Below are positions 967 to 5,797 of a stretch of 48,167 bases of DNA, piece after piece. Numbering within the stretch: the stretch's first letter is position 1; each line of letters begins with the position of its first letter. The DNA comes from a virus (taxonomy: Duplodnaviria; Heunggongvirae; Uroviricota; Caudoviricetes), in the IMG/VR virus record IMGVR_UViG_2721755721_000005. One strand, written 5' to 3'. The notes under the pieces are model-generated. The model worked only from the letters and a program-made list of their open reading frames with translations, was not told the origin of the DNA and ran no database searches. The translations under genes were made by a program, and so were the position numbers.

Positions 967-3438
967 TTAAGAATCAGCCTGACTCGGGATCAGTTTTTGC
1001 CAGATAACTGAAACGTATTTTGCCTGGTAACGGGCGTCATCAAGTGCATTATGGCGCTCACCTTCGAATGGAATAGCCGTTCTGGCATCGAAGTCTATGG
1101 CTTTCCCCAGCTCAACGATTGTGCGTACATCGCGATCGTTGTAGTAACGCCACGGGCAGGGGATCCCCTGCCGTTCGTATGAACGGCGCAAAATCGTGTT
1201 GTCGAAGTTGGCTCCATTTCCCCAAACCTGAACAAAAAATTCACCGGAGTTTTCGTCGATAAATTCCCGCAATTGTAACAGTGCATCATCTAACGGGATT
1301 TCATCGGTCATAATGGCAGATTGCGCTTCGCGTGATTGCTTAAGCCACCATTTAATGGTGTCCCGATCAATGACTCCGCCAGCAGTTTCCAGATCGATAG
1401 TCTTACTAAATTCCGGTCCCATATCTCCGGTTTGCGGATCGAAAAATATTGCACCTATTGAGATGATCGGGGCATCAGGATTTTTTCCCATGGTTTCAAG
1501 GTCGATCATTAGATGGTCACACGTCCTGCTGGTGGATGTGATTTCGTGATGACCGTTCACCTTAATTGGGTGATCTGCCGTCTCGCCAGTTTCATTATCG
1601 CTATTGTGATGCTGATTGCCGCCAGTGTTCTCCTTGTGTGGATGTTCAGCGCCTTCCATTTCCTCCGGATCATCTTCCTGAACTTCAACCTGATACTCTT
1701 CATCGAATGTTTCCTGGTATGTTGCGTCGCCCATCACCGCGCCACAATCAGGGCAGTTGCCGCTGCCGGTCTGACCGCAGGCGGTGCAGACTTTTTCCAC
1801 TTCCTGTTGCGCCACTGGTTCAGGCTGTTTCGTTTCTGGCTCGTTTTGTAACGCATTTGGACTGTTTTGTTCCGCTTTTTGGTAGTTCCGTTCCGATTCA
1901 TGCTGGTTCTGGTTCACAGAATCGCGGGTCTGGATCCCCTTAACCCATTTCGGATCATTCGGGTCACTAATCCCTTCAACAAATTCACCACGTGATGCAG
2001 CAAGCAACTTATCGGCGTCAGGCTGGCTGATATTGGCTGCCTGCATAATTTTGTTTACTTCGTCAGCGGTAACTTTTATCGGCTCTGGTTGTTCTAAATC
2101 TTCAGCGGTATCTACATTTTGCGGTAAGCCCGTGTATGTGCCATTTTTTCGGGCAAAATATTCTTCTTTTGTGATTTCAGTGGCGCCAGCAGCCAGTGCC
2201 TTATCCAGACCAGAAAGTTTGTTTGCGCGACCGTATTTTTCTCCGTCCTTATCTGCGAAGAGGAAATAGAACGGCCCCTCACGCTCTACAGATGGTTCAG
2301 CTTCCGGCGCGGTTTCATTTTTTGGGATATCAGATACCTCAGTTTCCACTGCATCAGTTTGTGTTTCTGATGACTGGAGAACATCAACAGTGCCCAGGTC
2401 TGTTTCTTCATTCTCAAACACGCCCTTTGTCGTCAGGTATTCGCAGATATATTTGTTCAGTGCTACGGGATCTTTGTGAATGTCGATCGGACGCTCACGG
2501 ACAAGGCCAAAAATAGTTTGGCGGTCGTAGCGAAGGGCATCTGGCTGTTTGCGCATTGATGCCGAGATACGCTTCCAGTCTTCGCGGTCGTTGTCGATAA
2601 CTTCTTTTTTTGCCCAGCGATGGATGCTGCCGTCAATGTTTCCGGCATCCACATCACCAGGCCAGAGAGCGTAGGCCAGTTCGTCATCCAGTGTTTTCCA
2701 TGTCTGCTTGTATTCGCGATGAAAGGCAGCAATGACCGGGCTGATTTTTCCTGTTGAATTTTCAGTGTACTGTTGATTGGTTCTGGCGCGGGCGAGATCA
2801 ACAACAGACGTGTATTTTCCGGTTTCCTTGCGTTCACCTTCGCGACGTTTTTTCCAGATGCGCATCTCTGCCTGAATTTCGGGCCATTTAGCACTAGGAA
2901 TACATTTATGCTTAACCCACCCAATGGCGTGCAACTTAAGCTCCGGATACATGGCGTTAACTTCTGGCATTTTCATCAACGCTTCAACGATATGTCCTTC
3001 GAATGTTGCCATGTCTTCCTGCAACAATTCCTGTGCGCTTATAACCATATCAACGGTGATGTTTTCACATGTGTCGAACTTAACCATGACAGCGTTCTGT
3101 ACTTCAGGGGCCAGCTTGTCAAAAGTGACGTTCATCGGATCGGATTCAGTCTCAACCGGGACAAAAGAAGCAGACTCCTCATCCCAGCGGTTTTCCTGCA
3201 TATATTCAGCATCCCATGAATCGAGGGCAGGGCGGGGTATGCCAGGTTTATCCTCGCAGACAATAAATTTATAAGCGCAGTCCTGAGCAGCCGGATAATG
3301 TTCCAGGAATTGCCAGTGAAATTTTGCTCGAGCACGGCGTTCGTCGCCAGCTTCAATGGCTGTGGCTACAGCCACAGCGCCTTCTTCCCTTGTTGCCAGT
3401 TCGTCAGGAATAGCGGCGCAAATAAAGACTTTACTCAT
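967..3438 (-). CDS. Large prophage exonuclease (exodeoxyribonuclease VIII-like position) with C-terminal DEDDh/DnaQ-type 3'-5' exonuclease domain and an internal Cys4 zinc ribbon
   Basis: 823-aa ORF. C-terminal region contains MIDLETMGKNPDAPIISIGAIFF...HNALDDARYQAKY, the DEDDh exonuclease signature. Internal CTACGQTGSGNCPDCG zinc-ribbon motif and a long acidic linker. Occupies the recE position next to int-xis in Rac-type prophages. Confidence 0.8.
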   Translation of the reverse strand: MSKVFICAAIPDELATREEGAVAVATAIEAGDERRARAKFHWQFLEHYPAAQDCAYKFIVCEDKPGIPRPALDSWDAEYMQENRWDEESASFVPVETESDPMNVTFDKLAPEVQNAVMVKFDTCENITVDMVISAQELLQEDMATFEGHIVEALMKMPEVNAMYPELKLHAIGWVKHKCIPSAKWPEIQAEMRIWKKRREGERKETGKYTSVVDLARARTNQQYTENSTGKISPVIAAFHREYKQTWKTLDDELAYALWPGDVDAGNIDGSIHRWAKKEVIDNDREDWKRISASMRKQPDALRYDRQTIFGLVRERPIDIHKDPVALNKYICEYLTTKGVFENEETDLGTVDVLQSSETQTDAVETEVSDIPKNETAPEAEPSVEREGPFYFLFADKDGEKYGRANKLSGLDKALAAGATEITKEEYFARKNGTYTGLPQNVDTAEDLEQPEPIKVTADEVNKIMQAANISQPDADKLLAASRGEFVEGISDPNDPKWVKGIQTRDSVNQNQHESERNYQKAEQNSPNALQNEPETKQPEPVAQQEVEKVCTACGQTGSGNCPDCGAVMGDATYQETFDEEYQVEVQEDDPEEMEGAEHPHKENTGGNQHHNSDNETGETADHPIKVNGHHEITSTSRTCDHLMIDLETMGKNPDAPIISIGAIFFDPQTGDMGPEFSKTIDLETAGGVIDRDTIKWWLKQSREAQSAIMTDEIPLDDALLQLREFIDENSGEFFVQVWGNGANFDNTILRRSYERQGIPCPWRYYNDRDVRTIVELGKAIDFDARTAIPFEGERHNALDDARYQAKYVSVIWQKLIPSQADS

Positions 3439-3531: not shown

Positions 3532-3723
3532 TTAAAGACCTGCCGGGATTTCGATATTATCCTGGTGAATAACTTTATCGACCGGGTAACAGTTACCGGG
3601 AATTTTCTGTTCGGTTGCTGCAGTCATACACTCCTGCATTGTCCTGTGAACACTGACTGCAATATCAACTGGCACTCCGGAAACAAGAAAAACTGTCAGA
3701 ACAAGCGCAAATGCTGAATTCAT
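3532..3723 (-). CDS. Hypothetical small protein with N-terminal signal-peptide-like hydrophobic segment
   Basis: Internal ATG (MNSAFALVLTVFLVSG...) overlaps the upstream gene stop in an ATGA arrangement, suggesting translational coupling. Positional analogue of Rac ydaE/kilR; function not assignable. Confidence 0.4.
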   Translation of the reverse strand: MNSAFALVLTVFLVSGVPVDIAVSVHRTMQECMTAATEQKIPGNCYPVDKVIHQDNIEIPAGL

Positions 3724-4013
3724 TGTGCACATCCTTTTGGCATCAGACGTAAACGAGCCAGCATTGAAACAATGCATATTTTATTTAATAGCTCCCGTTC
3801 TTGTTTTCTCTTGTTAATGGCATCTTCAGTAAATACAGGGTTACTGATCGTGACACCAATTTCAAAACAACCTTCAGACGTATTAACGTTTGGTAATAAC
3901 ATTTTCATTATCGCGTCCTCAACAATGAATTTTGTGATGCAGTGCCTGGTGCCTCCAGGTGACGTTAACCAGTTAACAATTAACGTCGGATACAGAGAAT
4001 CCACCCATAACAC
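3720..4013 (-). CDS. Hypothetical early-region protein (start uncertain)
   Basis: 97-aa ORF in the leftward early operon between the exonuclease and the sieB-like gene; coupled to the downstream small ORF. Confidence 0.4.
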   Translation of the reverse strand: MLWVDSLYPTLIVNWLTSPGGTRHCITKFIVEDAIMKMLLPNVNTSEGCFEIGVTISNPVFTEDAINKRKQERELLNKICIVSMLARLRLMPKGCAQ

Positions 4014-4394
4014 TGTTTTTGGTTTTAACTGTTCCGCGTGCGCTTAGCCGCATTCACAGCATCACAAAATTCACTTTAAAAACGGCGGCAGAGCAGTCAC
4101 GGAGTAAAACTGATACCGCCAAACGTCACCAGAAAATTGATAACAGAGGGCGTTGCAGCGGGGTTGTCACTTAAGCGTATGGTCAACCTGACAACTCGGT
4201 GTCCTCAACGGGGAAGGAATAACCCCGCCATACTTACCGCCGCGCCATTTTGCGGGTTGCCACAACCAGAAGCGCACGGTCGAATTAAATTTAACGACAC
4301 CGTACAGTGAGACGAACTTCGCCGTGCGCTTTCGTGTTGTGTGCCTGCTTTTAACCACGTCAGGCGAGGTGGTATCCTTAAAATCACCACAGTT

Positions 4395-4970
4395 TTAAGG
4401 ATTCATTAAGCAATGTCGCAACCACCAATAAATCCGCTTAAGAACATGAAAATTGATTACTGGTATAAAGCGCTTACAGTTGTTGGCGCTGCGTTGTTTG
4501 TCTTTAATGGAACGTCTTTTTTTGACAGATATCCCGTTGTTCCATTGGGTTTTTTGTCCTCCGGCATCTTTTTTATTGGTTTGGGGGAGTGGATTAATCA
4601 CCCTCTCAAAGTGAGATTTATTGGTCCTGGAGTTTGGACTCGTGGATATAATCGTTCTTCGTGCGCACTCGGTATCATCTTCGACATACTTGGTTGTTTC
4701 CTGATTGTTACAGGAGTCGTCAAGTTCTTCTGATGTAAAACCGCAAATGGGGCACGTAACGGGAATTTTGAAAAGCGTTTCTCCGGGTTCCAGAACAAAA
4801 TTTTCTGCGGTCTGATTTTGCTTCTCATATTTGTGCTCCGCGTCATTGTGAGAGCACATTCTTATTCTGAGTGCCTGTTTAAACTCACTGAAGCTGAGAG
4901 CTTCTTCGCCTTCGGCAAGGCCTTCGAAGTATTCTTCGTAAGCCTTTTCCATGATTGTGTCGAAATCCAT
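4395..4970 (-). CDS. Hypothetical protein; only the N-terminal ~79 aa (4734-4970) looks protein-like, the remainder overlaps the plus-strand membrane-protein gene
   Basis: ATG at 4970-4968 overlaps the stop of the upstream 51-aa gene (TGATATG). N-terminal part MDFDTIMEKAYEEYFEGLAEGEE...CPICGF has a CxxC motif; the part antisense to 4413-4733 is low-complexity N/K/R-rich. Confidence 0.3.
   Translation of the reverse strand: MDFDTIMEKAYEEYFEGLAEGEEALSFSEFKQALRIRMCSHNDAEHKYEKQNQTAENFVLEPGETLFKIPVTCPICGFTSEELDDSCNNQETTKYVEDDTECARRTIISTSPNSRTNKSHFERVINPLPQTNKKDAGGQKTQWNNGISVKKRRSIKDKQRSANNCKRFIPVINFHVLKRIYWWLRHCLMNP
4413..4733 (+). CDS. Small membrane protein, about 3 predicted TM helices (SieB-like position)
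   Basis: ATG preceded by AAGGA about 9 nt upstream. Hydrophobic segments ALTVVGAALFVF, GFLSSGIFFIGLG and ALGIIFDILGCFLIVTGVV. Plus-strand gene embedded among minus-strand early genes, as sieB is in Rac. Confidence 0.45.
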   Translation: MSQPPINPLKNMKIDYWYKALTVVGAALFVFNGTSFFDRYPVVPLGFLSSGIFFIGLGEWINHPLKVRFIGPGVWTRGYNRSSCALGIIFDILGCFLIVTGVVKFF

Positions 4971-4971
4971 A

Positions 4972-5127
4972 TCACTCACCTGAGTTTCTTTCCAGCCAGC
5001 GACGGGCACCATTTTCGGTTTTAAACGTTTTGCTTTTGGTATACGTCATCGCGGTGAACGTGCCGTCCTGGTTGGGGAACACGCCACATACCAGAGATTC
5101 GCTGTTGCCAAGATCGATAGTATCCAT
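4972..5127 (-). CDS. Small early protein, 51 aa (YdaF/YdaG-like)
   Basis: Internal ATG at 5127 with GAGG about 6 nt upstream gives MDTIDLGNSESLVCGVFPNQDGTFTAMTYTKSKTFKTENGARRWLERNSGE. First gene leftward of the repressor, as ydaF/ydaG are in Rac. Confidence 0.5.
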   Translation of the reverse strand: MDTIDLGNSESLVCGVFPNQDGTFTAMTYTKSKTFKTENGARRWLERNSGE

Positions 5128-5242
5128 GCTGACCTCATTTCCCCTTAACGCCGGGGTAGCGGAACTGTTTGCTGAGAACACCGTGCGGTGTCTTGATGGA
5201 GGTAATTTAGTTTTCTCATTATTTTTCGTCAAGGTTTTTTGA

Positions 5243-5262
5243 TGAGAAAACTCAAGTATTGG
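5243..5262. promoter_or_regulatory. Operator-like site (OL-type): TGAGAAAACTCAAGTATTGG
   Basis: Near-identical copy of the sequence at 5779-5797 (TGAGAAAACTCAATATTGG), on the other side of the repressor gene. Contains the inverted repeat TTGAG-N4-CTCAA and sits upstream of the leftward early genes. Confidence 0.5.
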
Positions 5263-5319
5263 CGCAAGATAAAGCCAATACATTGAAATGTAAGGCTTTA
5301 AAATTTTGTGAAGGGATGA

Positions 5320-5727
5320 TTATTGATGCTTGTTGCGTTTGCGAGCCTCTAATAGCTCGGTGAACAGGCGATTAAAATTCTCAACGCGGGCGCGGAGTTC
5401 GCTGAGTTGTGCTTGTTGCTCTGATTTAGGAAGTGCGCGATACAAACGCAGCATCTCTAACTCATCTTCCGATAAGTCTAAGGCACTATCGAGTGAAACA
5501 GGGGGAGCTGGTGTTTTGTCCTCGTCGCCAAACAGTATCCAGGTTGGTGAACATTGCAATACCTCGGCGAGGCGATGCAAATTTTGCCCGCGCGGGGCTG
5601 TATGGTCACTTTCCCATAATGAAATTGATGAGCCAGATACGCCAGCAGCTTTGCTTAAACCGTTTTGACTTAAGCCTACCTGCTTACGTCTTTCTCTAAT
5701 GCGTTGACCTAAAGTTTTCTCGTTCAT
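5320..5727 (-). CDS. Prophage repressor, XRE-family HTH (cI/RacR-like)
   Basis: Translation from the internal ATG (MNEKTLGQRIRERRKQVGLSQNGLSKAAGVSGSSISLWE...) has a classic XRE helix-turn-helix; divergent from a Cro-like gene. Confidence 0.8.
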   Translation of the reverse strand: MNEKTLGQRIRERRKQVGLSQNGLSKAAGVSGSSISLWESDHTAPRGQNLHRLAEVLQCSPTWILFGDEDKTPAPPVSLDSALDLSEDELEMLRLYRALPKSEQQAQLSELRARVENFNRLFTELLEARKRNKHQ

Positions 5728-5748
5728 ATTTAGATATCTTAATAACCC

Positions 5749-5797
5749 TTGACTTGAGATTCCTTGAGTGATTAGCATTGAGAAAACTCAATATTGG
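5749..5797 (+). promoter_or_regulatory. Rightward early promoter (pR-like: TTGACT-N18-TAGCAT) overlapped by an operator-like palindrome
   Basis: TTGACT at 5749-5754 and TAGCAT at 5773-5778; operator copy TGAGAAAACTCAATATTGG at 5779-5797 covers the predicted start region, just upstream of the cro-like SD (GGAGG) and ATG. Confidence 0.5.

Follow-up and report, generated by a model that had tools for sequence, protein, structure and literature searches.

A pair of overlapping genes on opposite strands lies at nt 4395–4970 of IMG/VR record IMGVR_UViG_2721755721_000005, a 48,167-nt viral sequence (Caudoviricetes) that is referred to here, at its full length, as the window. The window represents a lambdoid temperate phage of the Qin/mEp460-like kind, and its nt 4100–5400 are 99.4% identical to Escherichia phage HannyBb. 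An earlier note, made from the letters of the window, had described a 106-aa plus-strand open reading frame (ORF) at nt 4413–4733 wholly contained in a minus-strand ORF of 192 aa. The coordinates of the two ORFs confirm the nesting; the minus ORF, however, is 191 aa long (nt 4395–4970, ATG at 4970, stop at 4395–4397), or 205 aa if an alternative upstream ATG at nt 5012 is used. It spans the whole plus gene in the antisense frame that is exactly codon-aligned with it, position 2 of each codon standing opposite position 2. Temperate phages conserve the pair as a two-strand module in which, as far as can be judged from the sequences, selection acts on the freedom of the minus frame from stop codons and not on its amino acid sequence.

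The annotation of the locus is conflicting, being given variously as a ydfB pseudogene, as a hypothetical protein of 191 or 205 aa, or as one of 106 aa. PGAP provides at least two incompatible versions, the commonest of which calls neither long ORF; the minus ORF is WP_000344958.1 in some genomes and a 'ydfB pseudogene' in others, with ydfB flagged here as 'missing C-terminus'. The HannyBb annotation and PHROGs list the minus ORF and lack the plus ORF, and database entries are far more numerous for the minus ORF than for the plus ORF. At least 80% of nt 4380–4980 is present in 797 of the 5426 complete E. coli genomes in RefSeq (about 15%), and strain ATCC 25922 is one example of a carrier. A literature search found no paper on this locus, the module or the plus-protein family, nor any Ribo-seq or proteomics study of strains with the module.

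The two genes of the pair

The plus ORF encodes a three-helix inner-membrane protein of an unannotated family. A large protein collection yielded 60 homologues with 34–100% identity, the full-length ones nearly all 100–112 aa, from Escherichia, Yersinia, Herminiimonas, Reinekea, Burkholderia phage Bcep176 (gp33) and many metagenomes, a range that covers many Proteobacteria and phages. Their alignment shows invariant residues at Y16 W17 Y18 K19 A20 and at G56, G58, E59, W60, N62, H63 and P64, giving the family motifs YWYKA and G-x-GEW-x-NHP. The AlphaFold2 model (mean predicted local distance difference test score 85, predicted template modelling score 0.71) has helices at residues 17–32, 42–62 and 85–105, which bears out the three hydrophobic helices expected of the protein, together with a beta hairpin at residues 65–79. 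No model in Pfam, PHROGs, NCBIfam or PADLOC matched the protein, and Foldseek searches with the model against the PDB and BFVD returned no match at E ≤ 0.001. Among 83 near-identical copies of the locus (E. coli and IMG/VR), the single-nucleotide polymorphisms (SNPs) in the overlap comprise 16 synonymous, 14 non-synonymous and 0 nonsense changes in the plus frame. Judging from these patterns the plus gene is under purifying selection, and it is almost certainly real. The good Shine–Dalgarno (SD) sequence ascribed to it holds up in part: an AAGGA is present, but it ends 11 nt before the ATG, and both the motif and its spacing are poorly conserved in relatives. One Arcobacter sp. chromosome (NZ_CP182343.1) carries three identical copies of a family member far apart from each other (L103, L104, L105), which suggests carriage on a repeated mobile element.

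Three known types of protein or system were considered for the plus gene and rejected. The length of about 100 aa and the three transmembrane helices of the model fit a class I holin, but the gene lies in the immunity/early region and not in a lysis cassette, the protein ends in …VVKFF instead of a charged tail, and the best holin fold match had E = 0.24. Type I toxins are hydrophobic, usually shorter than 60 aa and countered by a non-coding antisense RNA, while the plus protein has 106 aa and its antisense transcript is a polycistronic coding mRNA. A homologue of SieB was also dismissed, as there was no match to the Pfam SieB family at E ≤ 0.1 and BLASTP against lambda SieB gave E = 3.3.

The minus ORF is of mixed origin. 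Its first 33 codons (nt 4873–4970) are those of ydfB, because homology to the Qin prophage of strain K-12 resumes at nt 4873 (query position 494), placing the joint near 4872/4873; phrog_2061 covers residues 1–35 (E = 4.9e-22). In the pairwise alignment with K-12 Qin, a mosaic module at nt 4343–4872 replaces ydfC and the 3' end of ydfB. The ATG of the minus ORF is 1 nt past the stop codon of ydfA (4972–4974), the same spacing as between ydfA and ydfB in K-12, so the translational coupling to the upstream gene that had been proposed is plausible. The first 33 codons and this coupling are common to the K-12 YdfB gene and the minus ORF, but the K-12 protein ends at 42 aa while the minus ORF runs for 158 further codons of unrelated, module-borne sequence. 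Identification of the minus ORF as YdfB was rejected, residues 1–33 alone matching and homology breaking at 4872/4873. From this alignment, the minus ORF appears to be the N-terminus of ydfB fused in frame to an early-operon gene borne by the module. Full-length similarity was found to phrog_35040; besides this family and phrog_2061, searches of Pfam, PHROGs, NCBIfam and PADLOC returned nothing informative for the minus product, and no family matched its tail.

The module's own, non-overlapping part of the minus gene occupies nt 4734–4859 and comprises the native ATG (4857–4859) and a CPICG knuckle (4740–4754). The native ATG of the window lacks an SD-like motif; in other lineages the minus start lies 32–47 codons before the overlap, and 9 of the 12 examined have such a motif ahead of it. 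E. coli, Yersinia, Roseateles and lineages known from metagenome-assembled genomes (MAGs) share the conserved motif G-E-x-[ILV]-x-x-I-P-x-x-C-P-x-C-G. Just before the overlap it reads …GETLFKIPVTCPICGFT in the window, …GEILCRIPVVCPVCGFT in L124, …GEDICFIPTECPICGFV in L125, …NEEIFSIPIECPICGFR in L129 (Yersinia), …TPFYFNCPKCGHR in L092 (Roseateles) and …EPLYKHCPKCGCD in L093 (a gammaproteobacterial MAG). The differences at the conserved residues fall mainly in third positions of the minus frame (e.g. CCC/CCA/CCT, GGA/GGT/GGC and TGC/TGT), and further minus genes have a variant knuckle, C-x-C-D-x-C. Seven codons invariably separate the first knuckle cysteine from the overlap, and in E. coli, Yersinia, Roseateles and MAG lineages the stretch I-P-x-x-C-P-x-C-G begins exactly 21 nt past the stop of the plus gene. 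In the 83 copies the non-overlapping part carries 4 synonymous and 5 non-synonymous SNPs. The substitution pattern of this part is that of a protein-coding sequence, which, as read from the alignments, means that the minus gene is not simply an artefact.

A second type of N-terminus, L..L.PGSV.[IV]…V.L.GW, occurs in mEp390-like phages and also abuts the overlap. There the minus ORF is placed between cro-like and cII-like genes with gaps of 16–36 nt, and tight packing among operon genes was found in mEp390, L092, L093 and L148. In all these lineages the minus ORF crosses the whole plus gene, usually stopping 3–15 codons past the plus start, and its total length is 141–164 aa in many lineages. 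A small CPSCG gene of Desulfocapsaceae, convergent with distant members of the plus family, was considered as a non-overlapping ancestor of the minus gene and dropped because BLASTP shows just a five-residue motif in common. Two variants of the minus frame were seen. In some Rac/Qin-like prophages the stop just past the plus start is missing and the frame continues through a conserved block upstream of the plus gene into ydfC, as at nt 2171–2989 (minus strand) of L161 and in proteins P0067–P0070, which have 227–272 aa and YdfC sequence at their ends. At about nt 3322–3345 of L123, whose plus protein is 88% identical, a TGA at the glycine of CPVCG truncates the minus gene at the knuckle; this looks like a recent knockout, as the frame beyond the TGA is still open.

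Stop codons and sequence constraint in the overlap

Absence of the codons TTA, CTA and TCA from the plus gene is both necessary and sufficient for an open minus frame, and the plus gene of the window has none of them. Given its own codon usage, the chance of an open frame in the window (P0) is about 0.05, which is suggestive and not significant; the significance of the open frame comes from the comparative data and not from the single window. All lineages with the same arrangement, among them the window/L124, L125, L129, L004, L094, L141, L142, L148, L093 and L138, have 0 aligned stops where the codon usage of flanking genes predicts 2–6. The per-lineage P0 is 0.001–0.1 at G+C fractions up to 0.53 and rises to as much as 0.4 in GC-rich lineages.

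Stop counts were also compared across the plus family, using pooled loci from genomes, viruses and metagenomes after removal of redundancy at 85% identity (43 members, G+C 0.39–0.505). The distribution is bimodal: 18 members have no aligned antisense stop, one has a single stop, two have two, and the remaining 22 have 3–12. Codon usage of the closed class predicts 0.35 zero-stop members among the 43, and E. coli-like usage predicts 1.4. In the open class none of 235 Leu codons is TTA or CTA and none of 73 Ser codons is TCA, while the closed class has TTA or CTA at 100 of 422 Leu codons and TCA at 34 of 160 Ser codons. In the two remaining antisense frames stops are about as frequent in one class as in the other (3.4 and 9.5 stops in the open class, 4.5 and 8.3 in the closed class), and by this comparison the avoidance of stops is specific to the codon-aligned frame. 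Members that manual inspection found to be co-directional with both neighbours, for example in Herminiimonas, Pseudomonas guineae, Reinekea and Shewanella, carry 3–17 stops. A stop in one frame of some homologues had been named as a sign that the pair is not genuine; such homologues do exist. We regard it as quite probable that the minus frame is kept open by selection and translated. In four GC-rich viral contigs (L135, L139, L146 and L137; G+C 0.54–0.63) the plus gene lies inside longer minus ORFs of 248–411 aa, which extend 140–204 codons beyond the plus start; these could be accidental, or the nested arrangement could have a larger host gene there.

The amino acid sequence of the minus product shows a different picture within the overlap. 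Four-fold degenerate sites of the plus frame, which are first positions of the minus frame, are 19–33% identical among the window, L125 and L129, a level of saturation that makes these lineages independent at synonymous sites. The minus translations are 35–39% identical where the plus proteins are 51–58% identical. Among the 83 copies, 16 SNPs in the overlap are synonymous in the plus frame and non-synonymous in the minus frame, five show the reverse and seven are non-synonymous in both. The minus tail is always hydrophilic (grand average of hydropathy about -1), as it is the codon complement of a membrane protein, while its net charge varies between -8 and +13 in step with the G+C content of third codon positions (GC3); neither a basic charge nor any other bulk property proved to be conserved in the tail. 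Four-fold sites, SNPs and tail charge thus gave no sign of purifying selection on the amino acids of the minus frame in the overlap. The comparison of synonymous sites that had been proposed for deciding between the frames therefore revealed selection in the plus frame but, with its four-fold sites saturated, stop avoidance and nothing more in the minus frame. Measured against what is expected of an antisense gene pair, both frames are open and have a start with a ribosome-binding site or coupling, the plus SD being weak or mis-spaced, whereas purifying selection on the protein within the overlap was found for the plus product and not for the minus product.

Operon setting and putative control elements

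The pair lies in the leftward early operon, a lytic operon read from right to left. The immunity region adjoining it is marked by a CI/DicA-like repressor gene (nt 5320–5778, minus strand; HTH_3, E = 2.2e-15), which is also the repressor in the HannyBb annotation. A sigma-70-like sequence, TTGACG-17-TAAATT, at nt 5204–5232 on the minus strand upstream of ydfA is a consensus match to a promoter for the leftward operon. The ydfA gene (DUF1391; nt 4972–5127, minus strand; PF07151, E = 7.9e-27, and PGAP annotation) directly precedes the minus ORF. Downstream of the pair, on the same strand, are the DicF small RNA (nt 4083–4134; Rfam RF00039, 72.5 bits) and dicB (nt 3720–4013; PF05358), the distal cargo that transcription has to reach across the overlap. 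The plus gene is opposite this operon and beside the repressor, a layout repeated in four other enteric lineages, and its Rac-like contexts contain KilR and a repressor.

A block of about 45 nt upstream of the plus gene (nt 4340–4385, plus strand; TGCCTGCTTTTAACCACGTCAGGCGAGGTGGTATCCT) is nearly invariant in six of six enteric lineages aligned, including two whose plus proteins are just 51–58% identical to that of the window. It holds an extended -10-like TGgTATCCT (4370–4378) and a palindrome, GCCTG-N13-CAGGC (4343–4347 and 4361–4365), features consistent with a promoter/operator of the plus gene. The block is absent from K-12 Qin, and the first BLAST piece suggests that some ydfC-carrying phages, e.g. 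606R7, possess it. A perfect 10-bp inverted repeat, ATCCTTAAAA / TTTTAAGGAT, lies at nt 4374–4402 (-11.6 kcal/mol, z = -3.3) and contains the minus stop (4395–4397) and the AAGGA upstream of the plus start. A hairpin is retained in relatives with weak covariation (one compensatory pair). A plus transcript starting near 4385 would lose the 5' arm, and the hairpin could then block translation of read-through transcripts only, the same logic as in the 'fold-back inhibition' of IS10.

Two further matches were noted near the pair. A 63-aa ORF at nt 4167–4358 on the minus strand (MVKSRHTTRKRTAKF…) matches phrog_8854 (E = 3e-26); it sits between the antisense pair and DicF, overlaps the conserved block, and may be a gene or simply the translation of a nucleotide element that is conserved as such. 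Right after DicF, at nt 3930–4081 on the minus strand, Rfam gives a sub-threshold match to STnc100 (30.9 bits; gathering score 47) that extends into the upstream end of the dicB ORF as annotated.

Interpretation and alternatives

The explanation that we favour combines the plus gene, a selected open frame and a ribosome track, and as a whole is given a probability of roughly 0.55. The plus strand would encode an accessory membrane protein expressed by the prophage, of sieB type by its position, that may act in superinfection exclusion or abortive infection and is probably driven by its own promoter in the block at nt 4340–4385. Embedded antisense in the leftward early lytic operon, it would be crossed on the operon-sense strand by a real translated gene with a short Cys-knuckle N-terminal domain (here with 33 ydfB codons added), whose frame would be read through the entire membrane gene and stop just past its start codon. 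Selection would ban TTA, CTA and TCA from the membrane gene and keep the minus frame translatable. The overlap would most likely be a ribosome track, that is, a sequence-agnostic translated spacer and not a second functional protein domain, because the frame is kept open but its amino acids are unconserved.

Rho terminates untranslated RNA that is rich in C and poor in G. The minus RNA across the overlap has 23–25% C against 15–19% G, so an untranslated passage of 320 nt would threaten the distal genes. If ribosomes translated these roughly 320 nt of foreign antisense sequence without a break, Rho-dependent polarity would be prevented, and the distal genes (DicF, dicB and ydfD) would stay expressed after induction. 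An open aligned frame would be the cheapest remedy, because there are just three synonymous codon choices to avoid. The membrane gene would meanwhile be silenced by the lytic transcript converging on it, so that expression of the two strands would be mutually exclusive. That shielding from Rho is the reason for the open frame is a tentative proposal, to which we give slightly less than an even chance.

Several related systems can be compared with the pair. The sieB gene of lambda, P22 and Rac is likewise an accessory membrane-protein gene by the immunity region and opposite the early-left operon, so lytic transcription runs antisense through it. The sieB-like character suggested for the plus gene thus applies to its position, as in Rac and lambda, and does not extend to homology. 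Lambda sieB is embedded in the same orientation in an operon with N antitermination, and its antisense frames are all closed, with 9, 4 and 15 stops, whereas the operon-sense frame of the window is open across the whole gene and the minus ORF is preceded by an SD-like motif in most lineages examined. In P22 an antisense RNA (sas) controls sieB (PMC12197685). In Pseudomonas phage Fc02, olg1/olg2 and gene 10 form an antisense pair beside the repressor; lysogens transcribe one strand, the other belongs to the early lytic operon, and one product is found in the insoluble fraction (PMC9936078). Both cases resemble our proposal in the mutually exclusive use of the strands. The insoluble Fc02 product, however, is that of gene 10 in the lytic operon, the lysogenic strand giving a soluble 7.9-kDa protein, while the membrane protein of the window is on the non-operon strand; the Fc02 study (PMC9936078) reported no comparative evidence of stop avoidance. 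The minus ORF also resembles the long antiparallel ORFs described previously (10.1101/724807), in which a codon-aligned antisense frame is kept stop-free while the sequence it would encode shows no negative selection, and it conforms to their definition, as its antisense stops are depleted without negative selection on the translation. It differs from them in having its own conserved non-overlapping N-terminus, mostly an SD-like motif, an operon context, and stop avoidance that is switched on and off within one protein family.

A number of observations weigh against our preferred explanation. No fold or family match points to a function for the plus protein, and the neighbours of the inspected co-directional members, mostly small hypothetical genes together with a few unrelated known domains, give no functional clue. 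The promoter of the plus gene was read by inspection, a consensus promoter scan having failed to call it. The link between gene context and openness likewise comes from manual inspection, since automated, ORF-based classification of context was too noisy. There are exceptions in both directions: the plus gene of Bcep176 and L143 is embedded, yet its antisense frame is closed, and in L089 and L160 the frame is open, yet the gene is apparently co-directional with its neighbours. The minus ORF of L285 (CPCCGFD motif, repressor to the right) stops after 64 codons of the overlap, two-thirds of the way. Two further singleton SNPs among the 83 E. coli and IMG/VR copies are nonsense alleles of the minus frame, so that over short times phages can do without a strictly open frame. 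The fixed spacing of seven codons between knuckle and overlap is a hint that a folded unit may include the first part of the tail, something not predicted by a pure spacer model.

This last point bears on true dual coding, in which the whole minus protein is functional, including its hydrophilic tail of about 110 aa, and might be an early regulator or an anti-exclusion factor comparable to Esc, which acts against SieB in P22. Such a protein would account for the conserved N-terminal domain that abuts the overlap at invariant spacing (CxxC, three residues, overlap), the consistent length of 141–164 aa and the maintenance of the open frame, and in the Fc02 pair by the repressor both members gave exclusion activity (PMC9936078). 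The tail itself does not behave as a selected protein, however: the first positions of the minus frame are saturated, the overlap SNPs are overwhelmingly non-synonymous in that frame and include the two nonsense alleles, charge and composition drift with GC3, no family matches, and L285 lacks the last third. We therefore consider dual coding unlikely, though of some weight. A more specific function for the tail, as a built-in partner that binds or neutralises the membrane protein during lytic growth through complementary hydropathy, is very improbable. Codon by codon, the tail is complementary to the membrane protein, so every substitution changes both; if the idea were true, the phage would possess a self-immunity device whose gene lies opposite that of its target.

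At the other extreme, the open antisense frame could be a functionless by-product of codon usage and of the ease with which an aligned frame stays open, joined here to a ydfB pseudogene, with the plus gene and perhaps a short Cys-knuckle peptide being all that matters. The P0 of about 0.05 in the window, the PGAP annotation of mostly just a truncated ydfB pseudogene, the tolerated nonsense singletons and the L123 stop right at the knuckle would all fit, and long antiparallel ORFs that avoid stops are common and generally without negative selection (10.1101/724807). This is nevertheless less probable than dual coding, since stop counts are bimodal, with 18 zero-stop members observed against 0.35–1.4 expected at matched G+C, and avoidance is specific to the aligned frame. 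It recurs in lineages with saturated synonymous sites, and a start with an SD-like motif in most lineages examined and operon packing in several also speak against a by-product. The reverse proposal, that the plus ORF is the artefact and the minus ORF the sole gene, agrees with the HannyBb annotation, PHROGs and the larger number of database entries, but it is effectively refuted by a plus family that keeps its length and motifs in many genomes with 3–17 antisense stops, by substitution and SNP patterns in which selection is evident for the plus frame but not for the minus frame, and by the confidently modelled membrane fold. Of the two possibilities left by the earlier note, that the antisense pair is genuine or that the minus ORF is artefactually extended, a version of the former is favoured, qualified by the ydfB fusion, by the lack of amino acid selection on the overlapped part of the minus frame and by the minus-frame stops that some homologues carry.

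Claims of antisense overlapping genes in bacteria usually come from one genome together with expression data, and are disputed. The plus family described here provides its own control, as the same antisense frame is stop-free in some lineages and stop-ridden in others. The comparison is direct evidence that an antisense frame can be under selection for being translatable and not for the protein sequence encoded there, and suggests a reason, namely that the operon transcript would be shielded from Rho across an embedded gene of opposite orientation. The analysis also defines an uncharacterised family of membrane proteins at a locus where exclusion and defence genes typically sit.

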